A stretch of DNA of 54,569 nucleotides, counting the filler, from Circinaria calcarea (Eukaryota), in NCBI GenBank assembly GCA_051942165.1. It is 2 parts of 2 records of this genome, joined end to end, with 100 filler letters (N's around TTAATTAATTAA, not from the genome) between each part and the next. Parts side by side here need not be neighbours in the genome. Positions count along the whole stretch, not along the records: positions 27,380 to 54,569 come from JAVECS010000069.1; 1 more part is not named here. One strand, given 5' to 3'. Below the pieces are notes generated by a model, which worked only from the letters and a program-made list of their open reading frames with translations, had not been told where the DNA came from and made no database searches. Shown here in pieces: positions 21,831 to 54,374 of the stretch; the first letter of the stretch is position 1, and each line of letters starts with the position of its first letter. A program made the position numbers and the translations under genes.

Positions 21831-21868
21831 GCGGAGAGAGACAAGACATGGGGAGAAAGGCGGGATAG

Positions 21869-22384
<516 letters not shown>

Positions 22385-29169: not shown

Positions 29170-32100
29170 TTATCCCGTTTGATTCAGCTCGCCCTTCGGA
29201 GCTATATACTCGCTTTTGCCCGCCACCAGGAGCGTAAATTCATTAAGCGACGCAGATTGAAGAATTTCAAAAACCGAAACCTTGGCTTTAACGGTACTGC
29301 TAATCCAGTTACGCAGCTCTACCCCGACAAGAGAGTCAACGCCGTACCGCGACAATGGCAGCTCGGGATCGATATCAGATAACGGGATATTGAAGATGTC
29401 CGACAGCTTAGCGCCAAGGGCGTTCACGAGCAGCTTCGAGGCCGCATCAATGCTAGGCGCCGCCGCGAAAGCCTGGACAAATGCCGCCGTGGTGGACTTG
29501 CTATCGGACGCTGCAGTATTATTGAGGCCAACCTGGCTCGCAATTCTCAGCGTGCCAAAGCGACGGTCATTCCGCATGGCGGACTCGGTGGCGAAGGCGT
29601 GGAAATTAGGCCCGACGATGACCTGGCTGTCAGCGAGGGAACCTCGCAACGGGTCTCTGATGCCGGCTTCGATGATTCCGAGCACGGCTTCAATATCGAC
29701 GGAGCCGAAGCCGACGTTTTCGACACGTGCACGGAGGCGTTCATCGCCGCTTGCTTCTCTTTCTGCCACATAGCCGACGGAGCGTACAGCGCCCAGGTCG
29801 ATAGTGACGGCTGGCTTGCCATTTGCCGTGCGCTGGCGAGCGAGAGCATCCTGGAAGGTATTACCGGCAGCGTAGTTGGCCTGCGACATGTGGCCTGCCA
29901 CACCGGCGACAGAGGACAGCATGATGAAGAAGGATAGGTTGGGAAGGTGTTTGTGTAGGTTGCGGCTGCCGTTGATCTTGGGTCGCACACCATTGGACCA
30001 TTGCTGGAATGTCATGCGCTCCATGACGGTGTCGTCCAGCACCATAGCACCAGTGATCACTCCCGTGATTGGAGGCAACCCGGCTTCAGCAACTTGCTTT
30101 AAGAGTTGGAGGAGGCTACTCTCATCTGAGACATCACAGTCGCGTATCAGAAGCCGACATCCGACAGCTTCTGCTTCCTCGATAAGCTTCGCAGCTTCAG
30201 GATGGGAGCTAGCTTTGCGAGAAACCAGCACAACGTTCTTGGCACCTTTGCGCATGATCCATTCGGCGACCGCGCGACCAATACCGCCCAGACCACCGGC
30301 TGCCAAATATGTAGCGTTCTCTTTGCACAGGGAGACAGGCGGTGGGCGTGTGATAACCTGTAGAGAGAACTCCGTCAGCATTGCTACTTCACACCCAAGG
30401 AGGCAAGACAAGGAATACTTACATTGACTTTGTCGCCAGGATGAGGTACCAGCACCAACTTTCCCATATGTGCTCCCCCCTGCATTTGACGCATTGCCGT
30501 GGCCATATCAGTGATCGAGAATGGGGTGATGGGATGAACGGGAGGAGCGTGACGTTCACGAACAATGCGGACACACTCCACCAGGGCTTTATGAGTCAAG
30601 CTACCACGGTACTCTGTGAGCTGCAGCAAATCAAAGCTGGTGTAAACGGCGCAGCGACCGAAAGGTGCAGTCTCCAGACCACGGTTCGCCTCGATGTCGA
30701 CCTTGGTAATATCAACAAGGCGACCAAAGCGGGCCACACAGTCCCATGTAGCTTTCAGCAATGGTCCTGACAAGGAGTTGAGCACCACGTCAACACCTTT
30801 CCCATTTGTCGCGACCATAATGGCTGGAGCGAAGCTGGCGTCTCTGCTCGAGAAAATGTGGTCGGGATTGATGCCGTAGGTCTGGACTAGGAGGTCTCGC
30901 TTCGCCTTGGTGCTACAAGTCGCATACACTTCCGCGCCGACAGACTGGGCCAAGTTCACAGCCGCTTGACCGGTTCCTCCTGATGCGGCATGAACCAGAA
31001 CACTTTCGCCTTTTTGCAGCCTGGCAATTTGCATCAGACTGCCGTAGGCCGTGACGTATGCCGCTGGGAATGAAGCAGCATGCTCCCACGAGATATTCAT
31101 GTCGTCGGGCAACTTCACCACCGAAGTCCACCATGTTCGACCTCTGCTAGCAAGACGACCTCGGACCAGAGCGCAGACACGATCACCGACCTTGAGTCCG
31201 CTTGCTTGTGTATCCGGGCCCAGGGCCGTGATGACTCCAGCACATTCATGTCCTTTCAGAGGCTCATCGAGTTCTCCCAACGCGACCATGACCTCGCGGA
31301 AGTTGAGACCGAATGCCTTGGCTTCCACCTCCACCATGCCACTGGGGACATCAGTCGTGCTGATCTCTGTATTGTCGACGAAGTATGGGTTGACTGCAAC
31401 GAATATTAGTATAAAAATGCAAAAATCTGCAAGAGGCCGAAAGTAATTAAGGAGTGATTTGGAAGTACGTCTAGATAAGACGTTCTTACGGCCGCACTCC
31501 TGAATCACTCATATCACTCCTCAACCACCTAGAAACAAAAACGTTTTAAATAAGAAGAAGGGATGGTTACTTCCTGTGGCGCCCAATTTGGGAGTCTCCC
31601 ATATCAGCGGCCGTCCCGGCTGATGGAATGGTTGCGACTCCGGAGGCAGATCGACTGCAAGGTTCTTTGAGAGTGCGTCTTGCATTTTATCCGGATACGT
31701 CCTAGGCACCTGAAGCAATGAGTCTTTGACAGCATATTCCCACTCTACGTCTGCAGGGTTAAGACTGGCATCGAAACTCTGCTGCAACACATGAACAATA
31801 TGCTGAATCTTGTCGCCGGACCATGGGCTCGCATCCTTCTCGAAATCGAGTCGGATCCATCGCTTGCCGGCATCTTCCTGTCTCATAGTTCGTATTAGAC
31901 CATCAGTCGCGCCGAAAGAAGGCTCCGTTGCATCGACGAGGCCACCGCAGCTAAGCCAGATTAGGCCGGAGCTTTGGTTAAGAAGTTTCTTGAGCTGATC
32001 GAAGGCGGTTTCATCCATGCCATCTATAAAAGGTGCTTCCATCTCGGCCGTGAAAATGCAGACTGTGTCCTGCCACGCTTCCACGTCCTCGAGTGACACA

Positions 32101-35100
32101 ATCGACGGAGATTTGCCGGTCAACGACGCGATGGCATTCGATACCTCACGCAGCCATGCTGTCCGCTCTCCAGAGGGCTGTTGGTTTGGCGGCACCACAA
32201 TCGAGAATAGACACTGCACGGTGGTCATTGCCCTGGAAAGCATAACGCGTGCAGACTGGAAATCTGGCTCTTCGTAATCGGGCACGTCAAAGTCCACACC
32301 AGTGAAGCCCACCTCACTCAGAACCCGCTTCCACATCTCGAGAGATGCGTTCGGACTCATTTGTCTTTCGGGTTCCTCTCCAAGCCACCATCCGGGCAGA
32401 GTGCCGAAGATCAATTGGCCTTCCAGGCGGTCTGCTGTGGCTTCGATGAGCAGGAGTGTTCCACCCGGCTTGAGTAGCTGCCGGACATGCGACATAGTGG
32501 TGTTGAGGTTCTTAGTGGCATGGAGACACGATGCGGCCACGATTAAGTCGAAGGTGCCGTTGGTGAAGCCTTGCTCCAGTGGGTCGACCTCGATGTCCAG
32601 CTTCTTGAAGTCCATCAATGACGACCAGGCGGCAAATTTGGACTTAGCCGCTTCGAAGAAGCCTGGCGAGATGTCCGTGAAGGTATAATGTCCAAGTATG
32701 GATCCAGTGCCATCGCCCCTAGTGCCAAAACTCTCCAAGACTGTGGTTGTTGCACCACCGGTGCCAGCACCTATCTCGAGAACATTGGCACCTGGGTTCT
32801 TAATAGCATAGAGTTCTGCAATGGTAGAAAGATGCTTGTAGGAACGGGTCTTGAGGGCTTCGTGATCCATATAGAACTGATTGAGCAGGTTTCCTTCCAT
32901 CATCAACTCAAGAGGGGTAATTTCGCCACGGATGATGGCCGCAAGGTTCCGTCCTACACGGACAGTAAGTCGACCAGCTGCATTCTGGGCGTTGAGCTCG
33001 TCTGCGAGCATGGTTTTGAGACCCTTGCTAGTTTTTGACCACGACTGGCTTCCAGCTCCGAGCTTTCCGCCGTGGCCATCTTGCACGACAGTCTTCATCC
33101 AATCGTACATGCGCTTGTGATGCCATTCAAAAGCTTCAGGATCCTGGCCTCGCAGCTCTGCCATAGCCTCGCAAATGAAGTTGTAAGAGACCCGAACGAG
33201 CTTCCTCTCGGTTTCGACTTCATGTTCCGCCAAGGGAATGGCTAGAGAAGCCCTGAAGTCCGCAGGCACGTTGTGGAGGATATCAAGCTCCCAGCAGCTC
33301 TTCGAGCAGATTCCAGCCTCCTGGCTCAAATCATCGGTGCGTCGAGGCACCGCTTGACCGAAAAAGCCATGCATTTGCAAGAAATTGGGGAAAGTCGAGT
33401 TGTCATCCTCAGGCTCTGGCGTCGCCGCCGCGATGGCAATGTTGGATGTGTACCCATGCTTGTCGGCTTTCACTAATTCAGAGAAAGCCTGTAATTTGTC
33501 TCCGCCCTGTCTCTTAAAGAATTTCGGCACAGTCAAGCTTCGAATAAACCTAGGCAGAACCATGACGTTCTTGTCCATTTCTTTGGGCAGACTACTGAAG
33601 GAAGCTTGCAATACGGAGTCGAGTGTAGTTGGGTGCAGTACATAGTCATGCTCTGTGCATGCAATCTCTGCTATAGCGAAATTGGTGATTGCCCGCTGTC
33701 CAGCGGTGTAGCTATCGATCAGATTCTGGAACTCTGGTCCGTGGTAGATTCCCCTGTCACGGAGCCCTGAGAATAGAGCCTCGATGTCAACTTTGGTCGC
33801 GGAGGTGTCTTCTGCGCTTCCAAGGCCCTGCTGAAGGTATGTGACATCCCGAGGCGTTTCCACTTTGCGAGTCAATTCAGCAGTCCTCGCCTTAGACCTG
33901 TCATCCGTCTGGGCAGTAACGAATCCCTTGCAGTGCTCTATCCAAGAGCCACCGGACGTCAAGGAGCAAAGCTTGAACTCGTACCAGCCGTCGTGGTCTA
34001 GGTGCTTATCACTACAGCTCTGGAGACTAAGCTGAGTTTCCAGCCCGAAAACGGAATCCGGAATGACCATCGCGTTCATGATATCAATATCCCGCAGCTT
34101 GTAGCCTTGAATCGTCGCTTCCGAAGGATCCGTGAGAAGACGCACAGCCTCGATGGCCGAAGCAATGTATCCTGCGCCCGGAAACACCACTGAGCCATCG
34201 ATCTGGTGGTCTTTCAACCACCCGATTTCAGATAGGCGAATGAAGTTCCGCCAAGTTGGTATGAGAGCATTGCCTCCATTGATGGGCGTCCCAAGCAGCT
34301 CATGAGGTGGGAATTGCTTGTATCTCTGGTCTCTGCTGATCCTAGGTTCAACCCAGAAACGCTTTGTATGATTCCAAGGATATGACGGAAGATCGGTGAC
34401 CAGCTGACCTTCAACCCCAAAGGGTGAATTTACTGCCTTGAGATTAACTGGGTAGCCTCGGGCGATCAGGGCACAGGCAACATCTTGCATGGTTTCAACA
34501 GCGTTGTCGGGTCGCTTGAGACACGATACGTAGGGCAGCTCCGTGTTTCGCGCCTTGAGGATTTGTCGTATCGGGCCTGCCAAAGTACTGTGTGCACCAA
34601 TTTCCACGACCATATCAACATTGGAAGTGCCTTCTTCTTCAAAGCACATTCTGTCAAACGCCTGGCTGAAGAGGACCGGGTGCGTCATGTTGCGGGCCCA
34701 GTGCTTAGGAGCCAAGGTACTTGGCGATGTGATTTTGTCTCCCGTGACAGGCGACACAAACGTCGCGGCATCACCCCAAGTCTTCTTAGGCAGAGGAAGT
34801 ATGGACTGGAGTTGGTCGATGTACTCTTGTGAGATGTGTGACATGTGATGAGAGTGGTATGCCATGGGGACCTTGAGCTTCCTCGCAAAGATATCATCTT
34901 TCTGCAGGCGAGAAGCTACCTCATCGAGAGCAGCCAAGTCTCCTGAAAGCGTGATGCTGCTGGGGCTATTGACACAGGCCACGACAACAGTTCCGCCAGG
35001 AGTATCGCTGATGTACTTCTCAACATCTTCGGGTCCGATGGCAGTGGCAAGCATTCCTCCTGCCAGCGAATGCAGCTTCTGGTGCTTTAGGGCAAGTTCT

Positions 35101-37547
35101 CCGCGGAAGTAAGCAACACCAAGCGCTTCTTTGAAAGAGAGTACATTTGTGGCATACGCAGCGGCGATCTCACCACTAGAGTGGCTAGTCACGGCTGTTG
35201 GGAAGATATCCCAAGACCCCAGTAAGTTGATAAGACAGAGCTGAACAGCGACGCTAATAGGCTGGCTGAGATTGATGTCGGCCACGCGAGTTGTAGCTCG
35301 GTCGCGCAATAGTTCGTCTGAAATATGTCATTAACCTCACCATTCAAGAATTGAAAATGGCAATGCAGCTCTCAAAACGAAATTCATACATACCTTTCAG
35401 CGACCAAGAGGCACCATACTCTTTGAGTATCTCATCGGCCCCTTGGATACTGCGGCCAAAGACCGGATAGGTACCGATGAGTTCCCGCCCCATCGCATGC
35501 CATTGCGCACCTTGACCGTTGAAGACGAATGCGAGACGGGGGCGTTTGGAAGTGCTCGAAGGCTTGATAAGTGGATCTCGTAGACGCTCCACCAATTCAC
35601 CAATAGTTCGAGCGCGAACAGCTGCGACCCAAGGATGCGTCGATCGCCGATTTGCTAGAGTATAGGCGAAATCACTGACGGATGGCTTCGTGGTTCCCAC
35701 ATGGGTAGCAAAGATATCCATCATGGTTTGACAGGCGACGGAATCTTTGGCGCTCAGGATGAAAACACGCGATTGATCGACATCGGCGTGTCTGTTGCCA
35801 TCGTGGACTCCATTGCTGGATCCATTGAGGATTCCATTGCTATTAACTTCGCCATTGTGGACTCCATTGTGGCTATTGGTATGTCCATTAAGACCATTCC
35901 TCTTGGTAGATGATGCTGGAGGGGGTTCCAGGATCAAGTGGGAGTTAGTTCCTCCATATCCAAAATTGTTGACTGACGCACGCAGCAACTTGTCTTGGGG
36001 CCACGGCACTGGTATGGTCGGCACCTTCAAGTGCCACCCCTGCAAATCGATCTGCGGATTCGGTATCTCAAAATTCAGATTCGGTGGGATCAGGCGATTC
36101 TTCAAAGCGAACGTCGTTTTGATGATAGCGGCAAGACCACTCACTGGCTCGGTGTGTCCAACATTTGTCTTTATGGACCCGACGATAATAGGGTCGTGTA
36201 CTTCGCGGGACTTGCCGAACGTCCTGGCGATGGCTTCGGCTTCGATGGGGTCTCCAGCTGCTGTTCCAGTCATGTGGGCTTCAATATAGCCGGTGTCTTT
36301 GAGATCGTAGCCTGCACGGGCGTAGCATTCCCGGATAAGGTTGACCTGGGCGTCTGCAGAAGGCGAGGTAATCGTTGTGGTCCTCCCGTCTTGATTGAGC
36401 CCGGTCTCCCTGATGACTGCGTGGACTCTGTTACCAACCTTGAGTGCAGCGTCGAGAGGCTGGAGTATGAGTGCTGCGACACCCTCGCCACGACCGTAAC
36501 CGTGGGCACGCTTATCCCAGGCAAAACATTTGCCTTCTGCGCCGATAGCACTGTGATGGTGTACCCGTCAGCTTTATCGGCATTGTCCCCCACAGCTTGA
36601 GACGCAGGAACAGAAAAGGATACTCACCCGATGGTAGATGCCGAGATAAAGGCATCTTGGCTGAGGAGGGTACTAGCTGCGCCGACAACCGAGATGTCAC
36701 TCTCTCCAGTGCGGATGCTTTGACAGCCTTGATGAACTACCACCATGCCGGCGCTGCAACCAGTGTCTATGGACATGCTCGGGCCTTGCAGGTCGAAGAA
36801 ATGAGAAATCCGATTAGCAATCATAGCAGTACCAGTGCCTGCAAGGAAGGCATGAGGAAGGACCTCTGCATCTTTGGTTTGGATCTCATGGTAATCTTTG
36901 TTGAATGTACCGGCGTATACAGAGGTGTTGGTGCCAGCAAGCGTTTCGACGGGGATGCCGGCTGTGTATCAGATCAGTTGGTGCTCTCGAGGGGATGAAC
37001 ACAAGGACCAAGGGACTTGCCGTCTTCGGTAGCTTCGTAGACAGTCTCAAGCAGAAGTCTAGCCTGAGGATCCAGTCCCTAGAGAAAGCAGATCAGCTTT
37101 CCGGATACAAAGGCTGCAGAAAAGCCTTCTCTGAGGCCTAGGGGACATGCGCTGGCAACGTCCGCAGCCAGATTGAAGAAAGCAGCATCGAACAAGGCGA
37201 TATCCTCGCCCATGAAATAGCCACCTTCAACATGGCTCTGAATGCACCGTTAGTCAATTACACGAGGATGGTTCGATGATATCGTGCCAACCTACCCTTC
37301 CAGCTCTGGAGGAGTTCTTGTGATACAATGACTTGTTATCGAAACGTGACTCGGGGATAGGCTGCCACCCATCTTTAGCCGAAGCACACAACTCCCAAAG
37401 TTGAGATGGCGAGGTCACGTTGCCAGGGAAACGGCAAGCCATCCCAACAATGGCAATCGGCGTTGTAGCTTTCCCGGCCGGGCGGTCAGCCTTGCCAGGT
37501 CCGCTGTCCCTATGGACGCCATTGGTGCCGTTACGAAGTGTTGACAT
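29170..37547 (-). CDS. Highly reducing iterative type I polyketide synthase KS-AT-DH-cMT-ER-KR-ACP (~2597 aa, 8 exons)
   Basis: Introns 37238-37295, 37079-37150 (GC-AG), 36962-37020 (GC-AG), 36551-36627, 35318-35393, 31394-31570, 30358-30422 give a 7794-nt open frame. Motifs: KS DTGCSAG / EAHMTGT / NVGHTE; AT SHSSG, AYHS; DH WLKDHQIDGSVVFP, HPTTLDS; cMT LEIGAGTG; ER LVHAASGGTG; KR GGLGGIG, LDD, QANYAAGN; ACP GVDSL. Alternative start at 37571. Confidence 0.96.
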
Positions 37548-38256: not shown

Positions 38257-41200
38257 TCACGCTTTACTCAAGCTCTGCAAGTTGATAAATTCAAAATACA
38301 CGCCCTTCTCCTGCATCAGCTCATCGTGCGTGCCAGACTCGATGATTCGGCCCTGGTTGAAGACATAGATTATATCTGCCTTCTTTACCGTACTTAAACG
38401 ATGGGCAACAGCGATCGTGGTGCGGCCCTCAGCCGCGGCATCCAGAGCAGCTTGCACGACCTTCTCAGATTCCGAATCAAGAGCTGAAGTGGCTTCGTCC
38501 AGCAAGAGGATCTTGGGGTTACGGAGCAATGCTCGAGCAATCGCAAGGCGTTGTTTCTGACCACCTGACAGCATGCAGCCCTTACTGCCAACAAGAGTAT
38601 CAAGACCGCTCGGTAGACTGATGATGAAGTCGTAGATGTTGGCATCCTTACAGCATTGCACTATTTCCTCTTCCAAAATGTTGTCTCTATCAGTACCTAG
38701 CAGAATGTTCTCGCGGATGGTCCCTCGGTAGAGAGTTGGCTCTTGACTAACAAGCGCTAGATGGGAGCGGTATTCGTTGACGTTGAATGATGAGATTTCC
38801 GTACCGTCAACATAGATCCCGCCAACGAGTGGATTGTAGAATCTTTCTAGTAGGGCAATCGCGGTCGACTTGCCACATCCACTAGCTCCGACGAAGGCGA
38901 CGTACTGTCCTGGCTTGATTTGCAAGTTGAGGCCTCGAAGAACAGGCTGATCCGGTCTTGTTGAATATCTAAAGTGCACATCCTTGAATTCAATATGGCC
39001 TTCTATGCTCTGGACCTTCATGCCGTCTTGGCTCCAGCTATCAACCTCGGGCTTCCTGTCGAAAAGAGTTTTAAGGCTAGCAGCAGCATTTCTGGCCTTG
39101 GCCAGGTCCGGCGCAAAGGCAAAAACAGTTCCTGCAGACTGCGCTCCGAAAATAATCGCGCTAAAGCACAGAAAAAATTGGAACCTAAAATAAGAGTCAG
39201 AATTGACTTCACGATGTCTGGAAAAAGTATCTCATCTACTCACATGCTATATTCATGTCTGCCAAACAAGGTACCTCCATACCAAAAGCCGAGCGCCATG
39301 CAAAGAAACTGAAGAGACTGAGATGCAGCGTAAAGTACGGATGACTTCAGAATCGATACAACTAACTGGCGGCTTTGTCCGAGGAGCTTTTCGTGATAGT
39401 GATTCCAAACGTCATCCTCGCGGGTTAAGGAAGCAACGGTCCGAATGGCTGCAGTGGCCTCACAAGCATAGCTTGCAGACTCTTCGTGGACCTTCTTCTT
39501 CTCCTTCTGGAATGTGACAAGCATAGCTAAACGGAAGTACCCGCAAGCGAGAAGGAGGGGAATGGTGGAGATACACACCAGACTAAGTTTCCACCCTACG
39601 GCCAGACCAATGGCGGAGGCGGCAACTAAAGTGGTGATGAGCAAGAGAAACGTCATGAGAGTAATCCCGGACAGTCCAGCCAGGTGGGTGGTCTCGGTAG
39701 ACAGGAAAGAAGTGAGGGCACCGGACGAGTTCTTGTCGAAATAGGCAATGTCTTGCCGTAGAATATATCGGAATGCTTGGTTGCGGACCCGATGGGTAAG
39801 TCGCTCTGCGCAATATGAAAACGCAATACCCTGGGAGATAAGAGCGAGGAGCTGTACAAAGGCAAGCATCAGATACATCAGAGACCAAAAGTTGGCTTGG
39901 CGCCGTATCTCAGCATGCTCTGAAAGAGGAAGCGAAAGGGCTGTGATGGACTTGGCGAGGAAGACAGCCTGTGTTGGATTACCTCCGCCGCAAATGGCAG
40001 AAAGTAAAAGTCCAAAGACCATGATTTTCCATTCTTTCTTGTTCAAGCCGGCAATGAATCGTACCAGTGTGAATAAGGTATAGTTGTCGCCGCTGTCCTC
40101 TTGTCGCTTCTTCGCAAGTGCCATTCTCGACGCGGTCCTATTGGTCTGTGTCTTGCTAAGCTGAAGATCATCAAGGTGTTCTGCATGAGCCTTTTTGCCC
40201 GAGTTGCTGCCCTTCTCAGCGAACTCGGAGCGCAGCAAGTTATCATCCTTTACAGACAGTATGGGATCTTCATCTTGGTTCCTAGATTCTTGCTTAGTGG
40301 CAATTCGCTGAGCCTCGATCAAGTTGTAGTAAGCCTCTTTCTTCTCGAGGAGTTCATCATGGCTGCCCTGCTCGATGATACGTCCTTCAGACATAACCAC
40401 AATGTTGTCGGCATGCTTGATGGTAGATAGTCGGTGAGCAATAATCACAGTAGTTCGTCCTTGGGCAGCTTTATCAAGTGCTGCTTGAACAACTCCCTCA
40501 CTCTTCGTATCAAGTGCGGATGTCGCTTCGTCAAGTAGCAAGATTTTGGGATCGTTAACTATAGCTCTTGCAATGGCAATACGTTGCTTTTGACCCCCTG
40601 AGAGAAGAAAGCCTCGTTCCCCAATGTTCGTCTCGTAGCCTTCAGGAAGGGTAGTAATAAATTCGTGGACCTGAAAGAACAAGTTTAGAATATTATTTCA
40701 TCAAGAGTTTTTACATAAAGAGTATATCTGAGGGAGGATTTTATGCCGTTAGCTATACTTACGTTTGCCATCTGAGCAGCACGTTCTACCAGCTCACGGA
40801 CCGCTTTTTGGGACTCCTGCCCCTGCGTTGTTCCAATAAGACCGTGCCTGATGTTTTCGTATATAGAAGTGGCGAACAAGACTGGCTCCTGGCTCACCAG
40901 GGATATCTGTCGTCGCAGCCAGCATAGATTCAAATCTTTGACATCATGGCCGTCGATATAAACGCTTCCGCCGACTGGATCGTAGAAACGTTCAACTAGA
41001 CCAACAATAGTGCTTTTGCCAGAACCTGAAGCACCAACAAGCGCGGTGGACTTGCCGGCGGGTATTAGTAGGTTTACATCCTCCATCACAACCACCTCGG
41101 GCCGGGAAGGATATATGTGTTTGATGTTCCGAAGCTCTATATTGCCTTGAACTGCATCCACCTTCTTGCCCTCGGTCGATGCAGGATCGAGAGGAGAGAC

Positions 41201-42576: not shown

Positions 42577-42883
42577 GTTGTGAGGCTTCGGCGATTGCTT
42601 TAGGGTGCGTGTGAGAGGGGTGCTCTACCCAGCCAGGGACGCAGCCGGTGCTGCTGCTGAGGGCGTATTCTCGCCGAAGAGTAAGCACGAGAGTGAGAAA
42701 TGAGTGAAAATGTAGCTTGAATACACAGCAATGTTGGCCAAAATGTGTTATTGTTGTTGTTGTTGTCGTTGTTGTTCGAGGCAGAGGCTCGATATCAGAA
42801 AGTGGTTCCCTGACCGCTGGTCGCGTTTGTTTACGCGATTAATTTCGGAATGTGATGCATCCACGCCCAAGATGACTTACGGC

Positions 42884-43121
42884 AACTACTGTGGTCGCAG
42901 GGGAAATTGTTCATAGCTCGGCGCTAAAGTCATTAGAATCCTCACTCAGACTATTAAAATTTTTCAGGTATTTTAACTCCATATCCTATTCTGATTGGTT
43001 CAATTGGTATGCATACGAAGTACTAGAAGTAAATAACAAAGCTTTTCCAGAGTTTAACTGCACTAGGCATTGATCTACTAGCGCCGAGCGATGAACAATT
43101 TCCCATCCGACCACAGTAGTT
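42884..43121. repeat. Inverted repeat (43-bp arms, ~150-bp AT-rich spacer), MITE-like
   Basis: Arm 42884-42926 AACTACTGTGGTCGCAGGGGAAATTGTTCATAGCTCGGCGCTA matches the reverse complement of 43079-43121 at 40/43. Confidence 0.85.
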
Positions 43122-43309
43122 CCCGCGTTTCTCCATCCGTAGTGCATCCAGCCGAGCTAAACAGTGACCTTTTCATCAGTTCCGCGAGCCTTACCCTAGT
43201 CTCGGTATCTACGACGCAGATCAAACGGCATGGCTAATTGGAAGGCTACGCATGCTAGCCCCAATTTAGACAGCCGGCACAGGCTGGCGTATCTCGGCCC
43301 GCTTCTGTT

Positions 43310-43402
43310 TCGGGATCTATCCGGTCGGCATTCAATTCGGAACTTATTACGGAGTACTCCGTACACCGGATGTTTCCCGATTCGAGACTCGGAGATCCCG
43401 AT
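43310..43402. promoter_or_regulatory. CGG/CCG-rich patch, candidate Zn2Cys6 binding sites
   Basis: Perfect 16-bp palindrome TACGGAGTACTCCGTA (43348-43363, CGG-N6-CCG). Flanked by TCGGGATCTATCCGG and CCGGATGTTTCCCGA (shared TCGGGANNNATCCGG in opposite orientation) and by TCGGAGATCCCGA. Confidence 0.4.
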
Positions 43403-43602
43403 CTCCCAAATGCTTGTGATCCCGTATAGCCTATATGCTCAGTCAGGATCGCTGATCTCGTGAACAGTGACAGACGAGTGAGAGGCCATCCAGACCATGC
43501 CACCTCCTTTCCACTTTCTCGCCTCCATCGGACTTCACATGCGTTCAGCCGCTCCTCAGATTCATACTTGAATTTTATTCCCAACACCAAACTCCACCAA
43601 TC

Positions 43603-46051
43603 ATGCGGGTTATTATTGTTGGTGGTGGTCTGGCTGGTCTAACCCTCGCAAGTGCATTGGAAAAGGCAGATGTCGACTTTGTACTGCTGGAAGCTCGAGC
43701 TCGATTAGACCCGCAAGTTGGGGCATCGATTGGGCTCAATGCAGCCGCAATGCGCATTTTGGACCAGCTGGGGGCTGCCCAGGATATCATCAAGCATACA
43801 GCACCAGTCAAAGTATCCAAAGTTCATCGCAGCGACGGTGAATTGGTCATGCCTCCAGCCTTTACTTTCCAGATCTTAAAAGCAAGGTATGACATAAGTG
43901 ACTTTCTCGCTTACCGAAAGTGTTGATATTAAAGAAAATCCTAGGTTTGGCTATGGAGTAGCTTTCCTGGATCGACAGCTTGTTCTACGAGCTTTGGCCA
44001 ACTCAATTGCACAGAAGAACAAGATGCTGCTCAATAAGATAGTACTGAATATCGACCACACTGATTCTGGCGTCACTGTGATTTGCAAGGACGGTTTATC
44101 ATACTATGGAGACGTCGTTGTTGGGTGCGATGGTGTCAACAGCAAGGCATCGATCCGTAATGAAATGTACCGTCTTGCTAGCAAGGAGGATCCAGAACAT
44201 TTCCCAGAGGCAGAGAAGATAAGTACGTATAGAAATCTGTGGCTCAGAAACGGCAACTAATAATCTTTACCAGAAATGACTGCCGAGTTTAATTGTCTCT
44301 TCGGTATATCTGACCCCGTGGACGGCCTCAACGAAGGTGACGTCGACACTACTTTTGACAAGGGTAGAAACATGCTTATAATTACCGGTAAACATGGACG
44401 AGTATATTGGTTCTACCACGAGAAGCTGGACAAACTTTACCATGTCGGTGCTAGAGACTTCCCGCGATACTCCAAAGCCGATGCCGAGAATCTCGCACTT
44501 AAGAACGCCTGGCGACATGTGAATGAGACTGTGACGCTGGGAGACGTGTGGGAAAAGCGTGTGTCCTACACATTGGTGCCGTTAGAGGAGGCTCTCTTCA
44601 ACACCTGGAGCTGGGGACGCATAGCGACTGTTGGAGACAACGCCCACAAGATGACACCTAATCATGGCCAGGCCGGAAACAATGCCATCGAGTCTGCCGC
44701 TGCGCTGGCAAATCAACTCAAAAAAGTCCATGATGATGGGCTGATCACCTCCCAAGCAATCAAGTCAGCGTTGCGGAAGTGGCAAGAGAAGCGCTGGGTC
44801 CGCGTCAACGCGACAGTCAAAGAAGCCGCGGCTGTTTGCCGGATGCAGGCGCTGGATAGTCGAATGGCCTACTACGTCATGAACTATGTTGTGCCCAATG
44901 CCACCGAGTGGCTTCTGACATTGGTCACCAACACGCTCATCGGCGCTGAGATCCTCGAGTACCTGCCAGTACCTGCCCAGTCCTTTGAAGGCTCATGTCC
45001 CTTCAATCCAAACCAAGGCGTCGGCAAGCACGAAAGCGTGCTCAAACGTGCGGCCATCGCCGCACCATTGCTCATTTTCTCTTACTGGATGGCGAGATTG
45101 ACATCAGCCGGCGGTATCGGGGATTCTATGAACCAGCTCTTGCAGCCAGGACAATTCACACACACTGATGAACGAACGCAATGGCTCCAAAGCTTACGCT
45201 TCCTCGTTGAAGGAAGTCTCATTTATGTCATCTGGCTGATCGAATCGAACCGTCGAGCCAATGTGCTGACTTTCGCCCAGCTCCCAGCGGTCTTCTGCAT
45301 CCTCGCCCTCAGGTTCGGCATAGGCGTCATCAGTCCTTGTTATTATTTTTTGCATTTCGTATTCTCGCGCGTCGAGAAATTCGCAGCGGCAGATGCAAGG
45401 CTCACCAACGTGGCCTACACCCGGACGATCTTGCCCTTGATACTGCTTTTCATCAGCGCGCCGATTTTCCTGGCCTTAACAGGCTACTCTGTCACCGTCG
45501 ACAAGGTATCGTGGCACTGGCACTGGATACTGCAACCACCGTTTATGGTCGCGATCGTCCAGTGGGTACTGGTCAAAGCTCAGCTCAGCAAGGTCAGTAT
45601 GCACGAGGATACGATGGGCAATCAAAAACGGGATCTCTCGTACATTCGATGGTGCGTGTATACTCTCAGTGCCATCTCTGCAGCGACTTGGATATCAGCC
45701 GAGCTCTCGGACGCTTCCTCGCTTTCTCTCTTACCCGGAGATTCTGTCGAGGCGAATCGGCACGGGATTCTACTCTCGAGTCTCTTCTGGGTCGGTCTTT
45801 TGCTCCACGACATCAAGAGCGCCGGGATGGTCAAAGACAGGTGGGTGAAGATCCTCGCGGTGGGTTTAGTGGCTGGTGTGACTGCAGGGCCGGCTGTGGC
45901 CGTGGCGCTTGAGTGGATGTGGCGGGAGGAGATACTTGCGTCGAAGAGAGAAAGGCAGGCACTCACCAGGGACAGGTATGCAGGGAAATCGATCCTCGAC
46001 GTTCGGAGAAGAGATGTGCCTGCCACTTGTGAGGGCAAAGTCGTAGACTAG
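43603..46051 (+). CDS. FAD-dependent monooxygenase (PaxM/CtvC-like epoxidase type) with a C-terminal multi-pass membrane domain (~779 aa, 3 exons)
   Basis: VIIVGGGLAGL (GxGxxG), VGCDGVNS (DG), TVGDNAHKMTPNHGQAGN (GD). Introns 43887-43944 and 44223-44273. The last ~330 aa carry several hydrophobic helices. Confidence 0.93.
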
Positions 46052-46145
46052 CTGAATCATCTGCCACCCTAGCATCTCGTCCGTGCCAGCCGAGCCTGCC
46101 AATTCTAACCTTGTATTAGAAAACGCACGGTTCATCTTTTACCGT

Positions 46146-46715: not shown

Positions 46716-48592
46716 TTACAGAGGAGTGAGCCTGACGTAGCATTGTCTTGGCATTCGGAAAAGCCGCTGTTGGGATTCCATGCTGTCCAACCCTTTAGGG
46801 AGACGCTCGAACTTGAAGTTCAAGACCAGGAGCACGAGGTTTACACGAAACTCCATCAATGCGAGATTTCTGCCTAAGTACCGTATCATTGTTAGCCAGA
46901 TGCTTTCGCACCCATCTACTCTAGTGACCGAAGCAAGGGACAAGTGAAGCGAGACATGGAATGAGACATACCATAGCACATCCGAGGACCAGCAGAGAAT
47001 GCCAGACGTGGGAGTTGGCGAGGGTTGAAGGAACCGTCTTCTGCAAGCCATCGTTCCGGCTCAAAATCATCCATGCCACTCGGGTCCCAGTGCGATTCGA
47101 AGTTGCCCTTGGAGCTATGTGAGGTATCGGATCTCAAACTCTCGGGAATATCGAGAGGCTTCGTACCAATATAAGGGTTGAGAAGTACACTAGTGCCCTT
47201 TGGGATCGGATATCCAAGCACTTGGGTATCGGTTGTAGTTGTTCGAACGAGACGGGGAGAGGTGTTTGCCGCGCGGATGGATTCCTCCATGTATGCTTCC
47301 AGATACGGGATCGAAGTGTATAGGATAGCTTTCGCTAATGGTTGCTCTCCTTTCGATCGTTCTGGAAAGGCGTCGAGCAGGGCCTTTCGCAATTTCTCTT
47401 GCTTTTCGGGGTTGGCGATTAGGAACTTGACGGACCAGGAGAGCAGAACGGCCTTGGTCTCGTGTCCCTATACCACCTCACACGTCAGCTGTCTACCCTG
47501 CAATTGGTATTTTGGCGCAATGAGTCTTACGGCGACCAGAATCATGAACAGTTCATCATGAATCTCCTTTTGAACTGTTTTGGGGAATTTGACGTCAAGA
47601 GGCTGCCCTTGACGTAGGCGGGCAAGAAGATGGCGCCGCACGCCGGTGACCACGGCGGAAGTCTCCTCAAGCTCCTTGAGTTGCTCCTCGGAGAGTCTTG
47701 CTAGCTTCGCGCGGGTGCTTTCTATATGCCCATCAATGGTACTGTTTTTCCGAGCCAATCTCTGCCTGTGGATGGGTTGCTGCCTGAGATACCAAAGGCT
47801 CCAGGTGGGGAACACCGACTTCAATGACTTCGCCACTGTACTTATGAAGAATGACACGTTCTCGCACATTTCGGGCTTCCGAATGGCTGGCAGCTGAGCC
47901 AGCGAGTCTGGTGATGCTGGTTGGATGGTGTCTCGAGATGCCCTGAGGACCTCATTGCGTGTATTTTTGATGGCCTCGCCAGGAGTTCCAAATACCACCT
48001 CACCAATCAATTCGAACGCTGCCACATCGAAGTCTTCAAAGCAGGGAAACGGCCGGCCACCAGCCATTTCAGCTTGCGCTCTGAGCAGCTCAATTAGTCC
48101 CAAGGCGCATTGGTACATCTTAGGCTCAGCGACGCGTCGTAGAAAAGGTGTCCCAGTGACACCCTCCCAGAATTTTCTCTGCTCCTTGAATGCAGGCCCA
48201 GTCAATTTGACCAGACTGCAATGCGGAAGAAGAGCGCGATAAGCATCTTGCGTCCTGGGAGCGCGGTCGAATTCGTGCGTGCGATTGCTAAGGATGTCTT
48301 TGACCTCGCGGACGTCATCAATAATGATTGTGGGGTTGGAAAAGGGCGCGAGAAACATCTGAATGACGGGCGAGTTGAGGATCCTGTTCTGCTGGAAGAT
48401 GTATTTGGCTGGGTCCTGGGTTACCTTGACTGCTTCGAGCAGCCCGGCCGCGTCTCCCCAAAATCTTCTCGCCGAGGCAGCATTGTATGGGATTCCTGGA
48501 AATGGCCTTGGATATGCCCACCGGACAATGTAGAGTACAAAGGCGAATAGACCTAAAGTAATCCACGGGAGACGGTCGAACAAGACATTCAT
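46716..48592 (-). CDS. Cytochrome P450 monooxygenase (~571 aa, 3 exons)
   Basis: N-terminal TM helix plus YPRPFPGIPYN. I-helix VA|GHET across intron 47468-47530; EESIR; PERW; heme motif FSAGPRMCYG|RNLA across intron 46874-46971. Confidence 0.95.
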
Positions 48593-48973: not shown

Positions 48974-50752
48974 ATGAATAAAGTCCAACCCGGCAGATTC
49001 GAGCTCCAGTACAACTCAGCACAGAGCATCGTCGGACTCCTACTGGGATTATATTTGCTGTATTGGATCATCAAAGTTATTTACCGCCTCTACTTCCACC
49101 CTCTGGCTAAATTCCCCGGGCCGAAACTTGCAGGAGCAACATATCTATACGAGCTCTACTACGATCTATACCCTCACAAACTTCGCTACCTTTGGCAAAT
49201 TGAAAAATTGCACCAACAGTACGGCGCCATCGTACGCATCAATCCAGCCCATCTGCACATCAACGACCCGGATTTCCTGGACGATATCTACGCCAGTGGC
49301 AACAAACACAAACGGAATAGGGATGCCTGGTTCTACCGTTCCGAGAAGAATGGCCCGCTTGGGTGGTCTCTGTTCCAGACAGTCGAGCATGACGTCCATC
49401 GCATGCGGAGGGCGACACTGAGTCCCTTCTTCAGCAAGCGCAACATCCATGCCCTGGAAGGGCTCATCGTCGGCAAAGTCGACGAGCTCGTTGAGCGCTT
49501 CGCCATCGCCCACCAAACTGCGGAGGTTGTTCCACTGCTTCACGCCACTGGAGCGTTGACCATGGACATTATTTCCGTCTACGCGTATGGGAAGGATGTC
49601 CGGAAGCTGCAACAGGCGGATTGGGCCTGCAAGGAGCTCGAGGCGTACAGCAAGTTGAGCCAATTGGGGCCTTTTGGCAGGCACTTCGCATGGATATCCA
49701 AGATGGTGCTGGTGACGCTGCCAATGAGTGTCGTGGAGAAAATCAGCCCGGCTGCTGCACTGATCCCCAGGAATCGGGCCTTTTTTCGAGGGTTGATTCA
49801 GGACGCTTTTGTAGCGGAAGGCTCGACGGATAAGGCTCCGTACCGGACCATCTTTCAAGAGATTGTCCAGAGCAACCTGCCGCCGAGTGAGAAGGCCCCC
49901 GCTCGTCTCTCTGCGGAGGCGAATTTACTTCAGATTGCGGGTACAGAAACGACTGCTAGGACACTGGCTGTACTTATCTTCCATCTGATTGACAGCCCGG
50001 CGGTCCTGGACCGTCTTCGTTTGGAGTTGAAACCATATACGCCGGAATCGGGTTCGACCATGTATCTGGCTGAGCTCGAAGCTTTACCGTACTTCGTAAG
50101 TCTGTGTGCCTGACACGCCATTCCCGCCTACCAACTTCAAGGCAAAAAAACTCCTTACTGATGCCGGCAATAGTCGGCCGTTATAACTGAAGGTATCCGG
50201 CTTTCTCATGTTGTGTCCAGCCGAATGCCTAGGTATGCTCCCGATGAACAAATTAAGTACGGCCAATGGGTGATTCCCGTAGGCGTAAGTTCACACAATA
50301 AGAGCTGCAAGACCAGCCAGGCCAGCTAGCTAACTCGTGTAAATCCGTCCAGACACCCGTCATGCAATCCCACTACTTACACCATACGAATCCCAAGATT
50401 TTCCCAGATCCCTACGAATTTAATCCGCAACGTTGGCTTGACGATCCTGACCTAAAGCCCAAATACTTCATGGGTTTTGGCCGAGGGACTAGGATCTGCT
50501 TGGGGATAAAGTGAGTTAATATGTTCCCAAACACTTCTGGAGTCTTTCCCTGATAACTGGATCAGCCTCGTATATGCCGAGCTCTTTCTAACGGTGGCTC
50601 GCGTTATGACCCGTTTCGATATAGAGTTATTTAAGACTGTCAGGTCAAGGGATGTGGATATCGTTCGAGACTGTATCATCGGACTACCGAGCCCTGAAAG
50701 TCCTGGCATTCGAGTGAAAATAAAGAAGGACAGACTGGCTGCCGCTCCATAA
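48974..50752 (+). CDS. Cytochrome P450 monooxygenase, trichodiene-oxygenase (Tri4/CYP58)-like type (~525 aa, 4 exons)
   Basis: YRLYFHPLAKFPGPKLA..T..YELYYD, LHQQYGAIVRINP, AGTETT, EGIR, FNPQRW, FGRGTRICLG. Introns 50096-50173, 50285-50352, 50511-50565. Confidence 0.94.
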
Positions 50753-51326
50753 TTAAATGTACTTTGCCGGGCAAAACGAGTTCTAAATTCGGCTGTCGTC
50801 TTCCCAAACACTTTTAACTGAGTTCCAAGATATTGTCATACTTTCCTGCAATACACCGTCATCATCTGTGAGGTGATGGTGCATTCCATAGAGCCCAATA
50901 ATAAATCTGCTGCGTTTAAAGTCCTTGAACCACCCGCAGAAGCGGTGTAAAGCTCCTTTGGCTGAATGCGAATATGGCGACTCAAAGACGCTAGATTACG
51001 TGACCTCTGAAGCTTACTGCAAGCCTACCTATAAGCACTCTCATAGTGACAATACATGCTTGATGTACTATACCTTCATAGGTAATGGGAGCACGTGCAA
51101 TATTACCCGCCCACCAAACGGATATTACCATGGTAAGCTTGCTACATCAACACCGCTTGGCTTTTCCGGAAATGGAATTTCCGACCAGGCTACTGCAAAA
51201 TATCGTCGTGTGGATACCATGGCACAACTGTCGACGACGCCCGGGCCAGTCCATATATATGCGCAAATGCTTTGACTGTTCTATGTTGCCAACCACTTTC
51301 CGCCTCCTAGCATCCGAATCACGATC

Positions 51327-52349
51327 ATGTCGACATATCCCGTCAACGGCAAAACTGCTATAGTGACCGGAGCTGGCTCTGGTATTGGTCATGCATTGAC
51401 TAAGCTCCTCCTCTCAGCTGGATGCTCAGTCGTGCTCGCGGATCTCAAGCTCCGCCCCGAAGCGGAGCAGACGTTGGCGGAATATCACCGCCCCGCCTCC
51501 ACTCCCGGCTCGCCAAGCGCCATATTCCACCCCACCGACGTAGCGAACTGGACGCATCTAACGTCACTCTGGGAGATCGCCATCAAGTCGTGTGGCCGTG
51601 TCGACATCGTCGTCAGCGTAGCAGGAATATATGAGCCACCCTCGAGCAGCTTTTGGAAGCCTCCGGGAATCTCTGCCGAATCTCGTGATCCGGCTGATGC
51701 ATGCACTGGTCAATACAGCATGTTCGCAGTCAACCAGATTGCTCCGATCAGACTGGCGCAGATTGCTATGGATTACTGGACACAGCATCGAGACATCCCA
51801 GGTAATTACTTGGCGGTGGCGAGCATGGCAGCCTATCTTCACTCCGTCGAGACACCATTTTACATGGCGAGTAAAGCAGCGCTTATCAGCTTCGTGAAAT
51901 CGCTAGGTTCGGTTCGCGATCTGTTTGGCATACGAATGTCAGCCGTATGCCCTGGCCCAGTTCTTGTACGTCTCTCTCCAGTCGACATAGCCATCTTGCC
52001 TCTTATTACTCTCCGTTCACGCTCCTATTAAACTTTTCAACTGATTCAGCCTGACTAGACTCCCATTTTTGAGCCGGAATGGAACAAGAAGTTGACAGCA
52101 GATGATGTGTCTCTCACGCCAGAAGAGTGCGCAGCTGTGATTCTTCGAGTATTGGTCGAACCCCAATGGGGGAACGGCAGTATTGTGGAAACTCAGAAGA
52201 TAGGAGACAAGAAGGCGTCGAAAATCGTCGTGCGTGATGTGCAGATGGAACGATTGTATCCCACGAATTTCGTAAAGCCGAGTGAGCGCGTGATTCAGAG
52301 CAGGCAGAATCTTATAAGGCAGATTCAGGAATCTGGAATGAGAGGTTAG
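51327..52349 (+). CDS. Short-chain dehydrogenase/reductase (~309 aa, 2 exons)
   Basis: TGAGSGIG Rossmann motif, VAGI, catalytic S and YMASK, VCPGPVL|TP across intron 51966-52058. Confidence 0.93.
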
Positions 52350-52577
52350 CATCGAAGGCGTGATATACTTAGAGAGCTTGCGCTGGCATATTTGCGATTT
52401 TGCATCCAATTAATCTCTAATTATAGATTAATTTAGCTGTGCAAACGCAGAGGAATTTCTTATATAATTTAAAGTAGGATTTTCTTCAACTCATATTTCT
52501 GCCCGTGGAAATTAGGTAATTAAACTTGGTTTGATGTGGCAATTGCATTCAGATATAGCATTAGTAATACTCCTTTA

Positions 52578-54374
52578 TTATTGGTGTGAGACCTTCGAAT
52601 GGAAGGTATCCCACAGTTTTCTAACTTTCAACTCCGTATTGACTAAAAGCTTCCGGGCCCCACGATTCGAACCCACTCTTTGCTTTATGCGAATTAAAAT
52701 CTCCTGTAGTTGGCTGATGTGCAAAAGCAAAGCATGGTATATAAGCTGTAATCGTATTTCTGGACTATTAACCTTGTAACGACCAAAGAAAATGGTCCCC
52801 TCGAGTGAATCGGATGTACTCCGGGCTGGGTCGTCGTTGTTTGATGAGTCAAGGATAGACCCGCTAGTGTCAATCGCTCTCACATCTGATGATCGGGGCC
52901 CTTGAGTGCTGAATCTGCGATTCTGGCGCCAATGCGTGCATTCATGGCTTTCGTAGGGATGTTCGTGCGAAGGCAAACACGTGGTGACACTCGCTACCGT
53001 GGTACCGAGCTGTTCCGCAATTGTGGCAAGAAGCATACCATTTTCAGTGCATGCATTACATTGACCACAGGCAAGCACCTGCTCTGTCATGTTCATACCA
53101 CGAGCGAGTGAGCTGAGTATAATGTCAAGGCCTGCACTTGTATCCTGAGCGTCCGTACCGAGTCCTTGGACGCCCATGTTTTCCAGTACCTTCAACATCA
53201 TAGTTACGCACTGACACGTGCTTCCAGTATCAGAACTTCTAGGCGGCTCACCAGATGGGGCACTGGTGCTTCTGGAAAACGAAGGAAGTCCTGACGTCGA
53301 AGTTACCGAGGTCATATTCGGTGCGACGGAGGCAATGGCTGGTGAATTGTGCATCCGTGACGCATGAAGGTGACTCAGCCCAGATGCAGGCCATGAATGC
53401 TCCTCGGTCGGTACAGGCCGATCCATTATTGAAGCTAAGTCTATAACGGAGTCCCAAGGCTGGCTGCCTCTTTGTGAGCCCACTGTCTGATGCAGCTGCG
53501 CACTGGGCACTTCACGGGGGAAGCTCTTATCGCCTTGTTTAGACATCGTCAAGGACGAATGGCTCGAGTTATGCATCCTCGAGACCGCTATCGAGGCAGA
53601 GGAGACCAAGGACTGATCCGGTTGATGCAGAAATCGACCGCTCGGGTGGCTTGAGTCTAAGTTATACGAAACATCAGCTATGTCATTATCGACTTCTGTG
53701 TCGACATCCAAGCTTTGCGGAAGGCTCTTCTGAGTGAGTGAGGCACAGGAGCTAAAGGTCGGCGTACGGGGCATGTTATCACCGGCCGATGAATCTTGGC
53801 CAACATCCATCATGTGCTGAAAGTCGCCACTAGGAAACTCCCAGTATAAGTCCGGAGCCTCAGGTAGAGGTGATAACGCCCATGAAAGATCCACAGGGGT
53901 AAGAGGGGGGGCAGATGTCGTTTGAGTTTGCGGTCCTCCGCCCACGATATCCGTGTCTGGGGTTTTAGTGGACTGAATCTGATCTCTAGGTTGTTGACGT
54001 GACTGTGGCCTGATAATTTGCTCTATTTCACGATTGCTGTCTGGTGATGACATGGAGGTCGAATGAGCGAACGACTGTGTGGACTGCCTGCGACGCCTGT
54101 CTGTAGACTTGTCCGCATTCGATTGATAGATACAAGTTATAGATACAACGCGGCATCTTTGGCAGCCGTTCTCGTCACCATTACATTTTAGCTGTGTAAT
54201 ATAGGCTTGATTAGCGTTCAGTGTAAGCAGGCGGCTAGAAGTACTAACCTTTCGGATCCGGCATTCATTGCACGCAGTCCTGCTGTAGCCTCGAGCTTCA
54301 AACCCATCAGCCCTTTCCAGCTCAACGTGCTCAACATCTTTGGTGTCCGAGTTATATCGTAAAGTACCGAACAT
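52578..54374 (-). CDS. Zn(II)2Cys6 cluster-specific transcription factor (~579 aa, 2 exons)
   Basis: ACNECRIRK|LKCNGDENGCQRCRVVSITC after removing the in-frame 57-nt intron 54192-54248. C-terminal CQC...CGQCNAC resembles AflR-type regulators. Alternative start at 54446. Confidence 0.92.
   Translation of the reverse strand: MFGTLRYNSDTKDVEHVELERADGFEARGYSRTACNECRIRKVSTSSRLLTLNANQAYITQLKCNGDENGCQRCRVVSITCIYQSNADKSTDRRRRQSTQSFAHSTSMSSPDSNREIEQIIRPQSRQQPRDQIQSTKTPDTDIVGGGPQTQTTSAPPLTPVDLSWALSPLPEAPDLYWEFPSGDFQHMMDVGQDSSAGDNMPRTPTFSSCASLTQKSLPQSLDVDTEVDNDIADVSYNLDSSHPSGRFLHQPDQSLVSSASIAVSRMHNSSHSSLTMSKQGDKSFPREVPSAQLHQTVGSQRGSQPWDSVIDLASIMDRPVPTEEHSWPASGLSHLHASRMHNSPAIASVAPNMTSVTSTSGLPSFSRSTSAPSGEPPRSSDTGSTCQCVTMMLKVLENMGVQGLGTDAQDTSAGLDIILSSLARGMNMTEQVLACGQCNACTENGMLLATIAEQLGTTVASVTTCLPSHEHPYESHECTHWRQNRRFSTQGPRSSDVRAIDTSGSILDSSNNDDPARSTSDSLEGTIFFGRYKVNSPEIRLQLIYHALLLHISQLQEILIRIKQRVGSNRGARKLLVNTELKVRKLWDTFHSKVSHQ

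Follow-up and report, generated by a model that had tools for sequence, protein, structure and literature searches.

PaxA, AscI, AurD and CtvD, as characterised in the passages cited here, are membrane enzymes that open epoxides made by a flavoprotein monooxygenase (FMO) or a cytochrome P450 into tetrahydrofuran (THF) or tetrahydropyran (THP) rings. AscI has eight transmembrane helices and no Pfam motif, is 27-29% identical to CtvD and AurD, and cyclises its epoxide to a THF ring in a reaction that begins with protonation of the epoxide; replacement of five acidic residues by alanine abolishes its activity (PMC6486709). PaxA forms the THP ring of paspaline from the epoxide that the FMO PaxM makes; it depends on Asp279, for which there is an equivalent Asp in AscI (PMC12038925). 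On the products of highly reducing polyketide synthases (HR-PKSs), AurC/D, CtvC/D and AstC/D act as pairs of an FMO and a membrane epoxide hydrolase, and DovC/D as a pair of an FMO and an 'epoxide expandase' (PMC12312803), while TreD is an AurD-like protein of another HR-PKS cluster (PMC10682982). Here we describe an HR-PKS cluster from an assembly of Circinaria calcarea (GenBank GCA_051942165.1) in which an FMO is joined, within one predicted polypeptide, to a helical membrane domain that may belong with these enzymes. The window, by which we mean the whole stretch of DNA analysed, is 54,569 nucleotides long and consists of parts of two records joined end to end with 100 filler letters between them; positions from 27,380 onward come from JAVECS010000069.1.

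The locus is an intact secondary-metabolite cluster of a filamentous ascomycete. Between 29170 and 54446 lie seven adjacent genes, each with a spliced model free of internal stops: reading from 29170, the HR-PKS, an ABC pump, the FMO fusion, two cytochromes P450 (P450a and P450b), a short-chain dehydrogenase/reductase (SDR) and a Zn2Cys6 transcription factor. The cluster is ordinary in kind, and an orphan fungal HR-PKS cluster is by itself routine, as most ascomycete genomes contain many. Its modest novelty is the FMO fusion, and the new element is the predicted pairing of an epoxidase with a membrane cyclase in that one protein. Taken as a whole, we regard it as moderately probable that this intact HR-PKS cluster encodes, in its fusion gene, an epoxidase linked to a membrane cyclase resembling PaxA, AscI and CtvD, a view based on homology and residue conservation.

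The fusion gene (43603..46051, plus strand) has three exons and encodes 779 amino acids (aa). Its first domain (43603..44983, plus strand) matches Pfam FAD_binding_3 and carries the motifs GxGxxG at residue 7, DG at residue 157 and GDNAH at residue 308; judged by these features, the N-terminus is a group A FAD-dependent monooxygenase. The helical membrane domain, with relatives named after CtvD and PaxA, follows at 45026..45960 (plus strand) and was defined by homology, conservation and an AlphaFold2 model. Both introns (43887-43944 and 44223-44273) have matching RNA joints, and the last exon (44264-46051) corresponds to 595 aa, including a tail of ~330-350 aa without a family.

This architecture is shared well beyond the window. 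The last exon has 140 homologues at E<=1e-5 by BLAST, and among the best 120 of these, on which our architecture counts rest, 60 are full-length fusions of at least 700 aa with 28-73% identity, another 21 are shorter but extend to the end of the tail, and 30 break off before residue 400. Fusion homologues occur in Daldinia, Aspergillus alliaceus, A. flavus AF70, Penicillium antarcticum and Microsporum canis, as well as in Dothistroma, Pseudocercospora, Cercospora, Fusarium and Metarhizium. The Daldinia orthologue (P0128), also of 779 aa, is 73% identical to the fusion in the window, and a Stachybotrys record (BDX35614.1) has been deposited as 'FAD-dependent monooxygenase StrN'. Our searches of the open-access literature found no description of a fusion between an FMO and a PaxA/AscI-type protein. 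As an observation on distribution, the protein cluster P0123, at least 90% identical to the exon at 44264-46051, has 63 members, many from environmental assemblies; it also appears in records labelled Peltigera leucophlebia and in a Circinaria calcarea metagenome-assembled genome, which are unrelated lichens, and the RNA runs in which the locus was seen come in part from metatranscriptomes of lichens, biocrusts and roots. Because of this spread over environmental assemblies and unrelated lichens, the organism or its close relatives seem to be widespread associates rather than those lichens' own fungi.

The membrane tail is the part of the fusion that carries the proposal. It belongs to no Pfam family (no match at E<=5), and its AlphaFold2 model, built from 50 sequences (pLDDT 87.8, pTM 0.87), is all-helical with about eight long helices. 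Compared with the PDB, this model gave no fold match (Foldseek best E 0.23; VIA-align best Z 4.9 over 61 residues); these scores lie below noise for helical bundles, and we draw nothing from them. A phmmer search with residues 465-779 against 1.84 billion proteins returned 309 matches at E<=1e-3, comprising fusions and stand-alone proteins of ~360-400 aa. One stand-alone match, the 375-aa P0336 from Lachnellula, reaches 4.8e-21 by phmmer and 3e-26 by BLASTP, with 30% identity over 250 residues. Its source name is 'Citreoviridin biosynthesis protein', and members of its 90% cluster are called 'Paxilline synthesis protein A'. The ten tail matches that were looked up are, besides P0336, hypothetical proteins of Cadophora, Bombardia, Cudoniella and Stachybotrys, or metagenome records.

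The residues invariant in the tail and in 11 stand-alone homologues are I83, E87, R90, R139, W181, P185, W269, K278, G302, W311, R314 and E315 (tail numbering); D276 and N93 are at least 90% conserved. In full-protein numbering the conserved polar residues are E511, R514, R563, D700, K702, R738 and E739, of which D700 is the one conserved at the at-least-90% level and the others are invariant; the codons of E511, D700 and E739 are at 45242-45244, 45809-45811 and 45926-45928 on the plus strand. D700 lies in the motif HDIKSAG.

A few further observations concern the family of the tail. Among 30 short tail homologues, many of them likely exon fragments, 29 have no Pfam match at E<=0.01, and one has a weak match to DUF7937 (E 0.002). 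From an Atlas search came only ascomycete clusters (0.93) and DUF2834 (0.79), a lead at most. Two other candidates were rejected. The short stand-alone forms of the tail (nine matches) all proved to be fragments. In the phmmer search, matches of ~240 aa are mostly single-exon pieces of fusions, and one such 90% cluster includes an 824-aa Didymella protein. A terpene cyclase of the Pyr4/PaxB type, an idea that came from the size and ~7 transmembrane helices of the tail, was set aside because Pfam is blank and the homologues are named after PaxA and CtvD, not PaxB.

Several observations weigh against reading the fusion as a coupled epoxidase and cyclase. The link between the tail and the PaxA/CtvD group consists of the names of one intermediate cluster, which are source-given and probably transferred automatically. 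We infer that D700 may correspond to PaxA D279 and AscI D296 by position and conservation only. On the side of the monooxygenase, the solved chains closest to P0128 are tropone 2-monooxygenase (1.4e-18), SorC, salicylate hydroxylase and AfoD, all matched within residues 1-372. The nearest solved FMOs are aromatic hydroxylases and dearomatising enzymes, not epoxidases, and the pointer to an epoxidase subgroup is one source name, 'andE', at 34% identity.

Alternatively, the tail may be a mere anchor or scaffold for the membrane of the endoplasmic reticulum, attached to an FMO that is a plain hydroxylase, or an epoxidase without coupled ring formation. The hydroxylase character of the nearest solved FMOs is in keeping with this idea, as are the 30 homologues that end before residue 400 and so comprise the FMO and the first helices, although many short records are metagenome fragments, cut off at contig ends or limited to one exon. 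However, six charged residues within helices (E511, R514, R563, K702, R738 and E739) are invariant, and D700 nearly so, at 24-33% identity. A simple anchor would not be expected to hold charged helix residues invariant across both fusions and stand-alone proteins, and we disfavour it for that reason. The stand-alone relatives are, moreover, named after CtvD and PaxA, a group in which the cited passages describe acidic residues as catalytic (PMC6486709, PMC12038925). We consider the anchor explanation quite unlikely.

The HR-PKS gene (37547..29170, minus strand) is predicted to encode 2597 aa in eight exons, from Pfam, tblastn and a splice model aligned to seven homologues. Within this single spliced reading frame of 2597 codons the domain set is complete, in the order ketosynthase (KS), acyltransferase (AT), dehydratase (DH), C-methyltransferase (cMT), structural ketoreductase (KR) region, enoylreductase (ER), KR and acyl carrier protein (ACP), with no release domain. 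Pfam supports the KR (1.3e-60), KS C-terminal domain (1.2e-36), AT (3e-35), cMT (3.7e-18), DH (9.4e-16), ER (ADH_zinc_N_2, 9.6e-16) and ACP (5.1e-12). The catalytic motifs are the same in all seven aligned homologues: Cys/His/His in KS, Ser in AT, HxxxGxxxxP in DH, VLEIGAGTGG as the S-adenosylmethionine-binding motif of cMT, HAASGGTGQAA in ER, GGLGGIG and YAAGN in KR, and GVDSL in ACP. Since the PKS has every domain and, by motif, every catalytic residue, a reduced, C-methylated chain is the reasonable product.

The PKS also belongs to a clade with unusual motif variants. At residues ~200-340 and ~675 (window ~36900-35200, minus strand) it reads DTGCSAG around the KS Cys, EAHMTGT, and SHSSGE in AT, as do all seven homologues, and these variants still keep the Cys, both His and the Ser. 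The usual forms are DTACSSS, EAHGTGT and GHSxGE. The exon for AT-DH-cMT finds 3840 long proteins at E<=1e-30, and the best homologues are from Apiospora aurea (84%), Neopestalotiopsis clavispora (81%), Collariella (69%) and Penicillium brevicompactum (68%), followed by Aspergillus alliaceus (62%), Microsporum canis (60%) and Beauveria bassiana (57%); the nearest named relatives are in Xylariales and Amphisphaeriales.

From these parts a biosynthetic route can be proposed. The iterative HR-PKS would build a reduced, C-methylated chain that keeps at least one double bond, and the N-terminal FAD domain of the fusion would epoxidise that remaining double bond. Next, the C-terminal membrane domain would open the epoxide by protonating it, with D700 and/or E511 as the probable acids; attack by an internal hydroxyl would give a THF or THP ring, and attack by water would yield a diol. 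Tuning of the oxidation state may fall to both P450s and the SDR, export of the product to the ABCB pump, and activation of the cluster to the Zn2Cys6 protein. Because the tail appears to be related to the epoxide-opening CtvD/PaxA group, epoxidation is better supported than it would be from the FMO alone, and on present homology it is probably followed by ring formation. A first-pass annotation of this DNA had predicted a C-methylated, reduced polyketide, which is reasonable given the complete domains and catalytic motifs; its epoxidation step is supported indirectly, through the relatives of the tail that are named after CtvD and PaxA. It had also recorded an FMO-membrane fusion, which is real, and had passed over the likely second step, the opening of the epoxide to a cyclic ether or diol. 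None of our results supports its further suggestion, drawn from the full-size ABC pump, of a toxic product. In a stronger version of the proposal, the 779-aa protein carries out both epoxidation and cyclisation by itself, as a natural fusion between a PaxM-type FMO and a PaxA/AscI-type membrane cyclase; working at the membrane as a single polypeptide, it would equip a methylated polyketide, already fully processed, with a cyclic ether, and would represent an enzyme family that has gone unrecognised. We offer this version tentatively, as a possibility somewhat short of an even chance.

RNA contigs offer a view of splicing at the locus. Contigs of four runs were aligned over 34570-54569; three runs (X2, X4 and X7) are metatranscriptomes, and the fourth (X1) is RNA by our guess. 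The contigs are 90-99% alike to the window and so come from close relatives. In these relatives five cluster genes are spliced, with contig joints agreeing with 11 of 11 predicted introns (three each in the ABC and P450b genes, two each in the FMO and P450a genes, and one in the SDR gene). One contig piece in the transcription factor gene ends at 54191, the predicted acceptor site, and the one PKS contig listed over 34570-37548 (X2 record 6) is unspliced. Contig depth was not used to rank expression, and uncovered parts, such as the transcription factor in X2, are uninformative.

The remaining points against our preferred reading concern the PKS gene and the completeness of the locus. The PKS introns of the splice model, all on the minus strand, are 37295-37238, 37150-37079, 37020-36962, 36627-36551, 35393-35318, 31570-31394 (177 nt) and 30422-30358. 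The second (GCATGT..CTAG, 72 nt) and third (GCAAGT..ACAG, 59 nt) are consecutive GC-AG introns in the KS-coding 5' part, where the frame is kept only with these rare GC donors and no GT alternative works. No spliced PKS intron is among the RNA joints listed over 34570-54569. The PKS protein ends after its ACP, so that chain release requires a separate enzyme, and no thioesterase or hydrolase for this role is among the Pfam matches in the window. Separately, a 144-nt version of the sixth intron was dropped in favour of the 177-nt form, which fits all seven homologues, because the shorter version would insert 11 residues absent from every one of them.

These features may also indicate that the locus is incomplete or decaying and yields no product, either because the PKS is mis-spliced at its GC donors and 177-nt intron or because essential genes are elsewhere or lost. 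The window ends 123 bases past the first Met of the transcription factor, and the cluster may therefore extend beyond it. The left flank, which an explanation by decay would also invoke, consists of transposon debris with two runs of N. Yet the PKS frame is open over 2597 codons with all motifs kept, and in a tblastn search with the Apiospora homologue P0003 it gave seven high-scoring segment pairs at 62-96% identity, six of which are at 79-96%; the lowest (62%) is the one that covers both GC-donor introns. The Apiospora annotation runs in frame straight through the site of intron 3, precisely as would be expected if a GC donor is conserved there, as is probable, and was missed by the gene caller. 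The neighbouring genes are, in addition, transcribed and spliced in relatives. We regard decay of the locus as very unlikely and continue to read it as an intact cluster.

Whether the product is already known is a separate matter. The cluster could belong to a family with a known product and not be an orphan, and homologues of the PKS and of the fusion do co-occur elsewhere, in Aspergillus alliaceus (62% and 70%, respectively), Microsporum canis (60% and 67%), Penicillium brevicompactum (68% and 51%) and also Beauveria. The 31%-identical fused homologue of Stachybotrys bears a pathway name, StrN, for which we found no paper in the open-access literature; the literature searched comprised open-access texts only. 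In the other direction, none of the 120 PKS matches listed above ~50% identity is named as a characterised synthase, no close PKS or FMO homologue among the matches listed is named as a characterised enzyme, and our searches of the open-access literature found no cluster with the gene set of the window. A few uncharacterised PKS homologues, at 42-84% identity, were labelled LovF, compactin diketide synthase or azaB by their sources. To our knowledge, none of the brefeldin-, seiricuprolide-, fumonisin/sphingofungin- or salicylaldehyde-type clusters fits this gene set. Membership of a family with a known product thus seems unlikely, and orphan status is plausible. As a side observation, P0006 (a PKS homologue, 69%) and P0145 (a homologue of the fusion exon, 54%) are both on contigs of 80143 bases, which hints that they may share one contig, with the pair linked in a more distant relative.

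The window is fungal, with genes split by short introns; gene models were built from homologue alignments and a GT-AG search, and Pfam was run on stop-to-stop frames over 29170-54500. The full-size ABCB-type transporter (42576..38257, minus strand; 1358 aa; Pfam, motifs, RNA joints) matches ABC_membrane twice (5e-50 and 9e-48) as well as ABC_tran, in alternating order of transmembrane and nucleotide-binding domains, each present twice. Its Walker A, LSGGQ and Walker B motifs each occur in two copies, so that both nucleotide-binding sites are complete, and its introns (41494-41403, 40762-40671 and 39243-39185) agree with RNA joints in X1, X2 and X4. A joint in X1 (42576->42683) skips ~106 nt immediately 5' of the start codon (window ~42577-42690, minus strand), which suggests that the ABC gene has an intron in its 5' untranslated region, within the spacer that separates it from the divergent FMO gene. 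That spacer (42577..43602, 1026 bp by the gene models, no strand assigned) is presumed to be a shared promoter.

The P450 genes form a second divergent pair, with a 381-bp spacer. P450a (48592..46716, minus strand; 571 aa; Pfam, RNA joints) has the heme motif FSAGPRMCYG and a Pfam p450 match of 7.6e-25 on its C-terminal exon; its first 354 aa alone have no P450 match in Pfam, which is not unusual, and its introns at 47530-47468 and 46971-46874 agree with RNA joints. P450b (48974..50752, plus strand; 525 aa; Pfam, RNA joints) has the heme motif FGRGTRICLG and a p450 match of 9.5e-15, and its introns at 50096-50173, 50285-50352 and 50511-50565 agree with joints in X1, X2 and X4. The SDR (51327..52349, plus strand; 309 aa; Pfam, RNA joints, stop codon located) matches adh_short at 2e-28, with TGAGSGIG (TGxxxGxG) and YMASK (YxxxK), and its intron at 51966-52058 agrees with joints in X1 and X4. 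In the stretch that separates P450b from the SDR, an X4 contig has, at 51016-51074 and 51197-51263, a joint with CT..AC ends, intron-like on the minus strand, and a second non-canonical joint; possible sources are a short transcript, either antisense or unannotated, and an indel in the relative. No open reading frame with a known family was found at 51016-51263.

The transcription factor (54446..52578, minus strand) has 603 aa from its first Met, or 579 aa from the Met at 54374. Its intron (54248-54192, 57 nt, GTTAGT..ACAG) divides the zinc cluster, which explains why the unspliced 640-aa frame has no Pfam match at 1e-3 and reaches Zn_clus only at E = 0.01. Once spliced, the motif is CNECRIRKLKCNGDENGCQRCRVVSITC, a complete Cx2Cx6Cx6Cx2Cx6C; no middle homology region, AflR or other recognised domain was found beyond it. 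The first-pass annotation had listed seven contiguous genes with open frames, a KS-AT-DH-cMT-ER-KR-ACP synthase, two divergent pairs (ABC/FMO and P450/P450) and a cluster regulator, and all of these are upheld by the Pfam matches, catalytic motifs, stop-free spliced models and complete zinc cluster given above. Of the borders that it drew, 29170 holds as the last base of the PKS stop codon, and 54374 is replaced by 54446, being the second in-frame Met of the transcription factor and not the first. By Pfam, the left flank (1-29169) contains no biosynthetic gene. It holds a SNF2-family helicase gene at 3457-7168 (minus strand), degenerate reverse-transcriptase (RVT_1) and DDE_3 transposase relics at 19785-25428, and family-less frames. 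From 8 to 29 kb there are few long frames, and G+C is 0.44-0.49 except in two 2-kb bins at 0.53 and 0.57. The two N runs, of 44 bases each at 27280-27323 and 27336-27379 with 12 bases between them, lie 1.8 kb from the PKS stop.

Our findings touch on how ether-forming enzymes are recognised in genomes. That PaxA-type proteins are THP/THF cyclases is a recent result (PMC12038925, 2025; PMC6486709, 2019). If the proposed function is correct, a conserved fusion of an FMO with such a cyclase would offer independent genomic support for the two activities operating together, as well as a convenient single-gene handle for genome mining and a compact ether-ring catalyst for engineered pathways. The full-length fusions, which number at least 60 and span Eurotiomycetes, Sordariomycetes, Dothideomycetes and Leotiomycetes, currently carry no annotation beyond 'FAD binding domain protein'; they would then acquire a predicted function and could guide mining for ether-bearing polyketides and meroterpenoids. 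For the cluster described here, the product may be a reduced polyketide that bears methyl branches and an oxygen heterocycle, and standard heterologous expression could supply it.

Comparison with known systems helps to place both halves of this proposal. In its order of KS-AT-DH-cMT-ER-KR-ACP, the PKS resembles LovB (PDB 7cpx), which matches the AT-DH-cMT exon at 1e-111, and the diketide synthases LovF and MlcB. Unlike these, it belongs to the clade with the DTGCSAG, EAHMTGT and SHSSGE variants and has neither a condensation nor a reductase release domain. StrN (BDX35614.1, 836 aa) shares the fused architecture, with FAD_binding_3 at its N-terminus and an alignment to residues 5-567 of the 595-aa exon, but only 31% identity.

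As with PaxM and PaxA (IdtA), where an FAD monooxygenase makes an epoxide on which a helical membrane protein with a catalytic Asp then acts, the fusion would combine both steps, and relatives of its tail are named after PaxA by their sources. PaxM and PaxA are, however, two proteins that make an indole diterpene, whereas the window has one 779-aa polypeptide in a polyketide cluster without terpene genes. AscI, a membrane terpene cyclase, resembles the tail in its multiple transmembrane helices and its lack of a Pfam motif; its acidic residues are essential, and the conserved acidic residues of the tail are candidates for a similar role. In contrast to the fusion, AscI is a stand-alone protein that receives its epoxide from a different enzyme and acts on a meroterpenoid substrate, in the ascofuranone pathway. 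The AurC/D, CtvC/D, AstC/D and DovC/D pairs, of aurovertin, citreoviridin, asteltoxin and deoxyverrucosidin, are encoded by separate genes where the window has a fusion; one relative of the tail is named after the citreoviridin protein. These pathways lead to alpha-pyrone polyenes and involve an O-methyltransferase as well as a PKS in which the ER is not used. Compared with them, the window has an apparently intact PKS ER, two P450s, an SDR and an ABC pump, and no O-methyltransferase.

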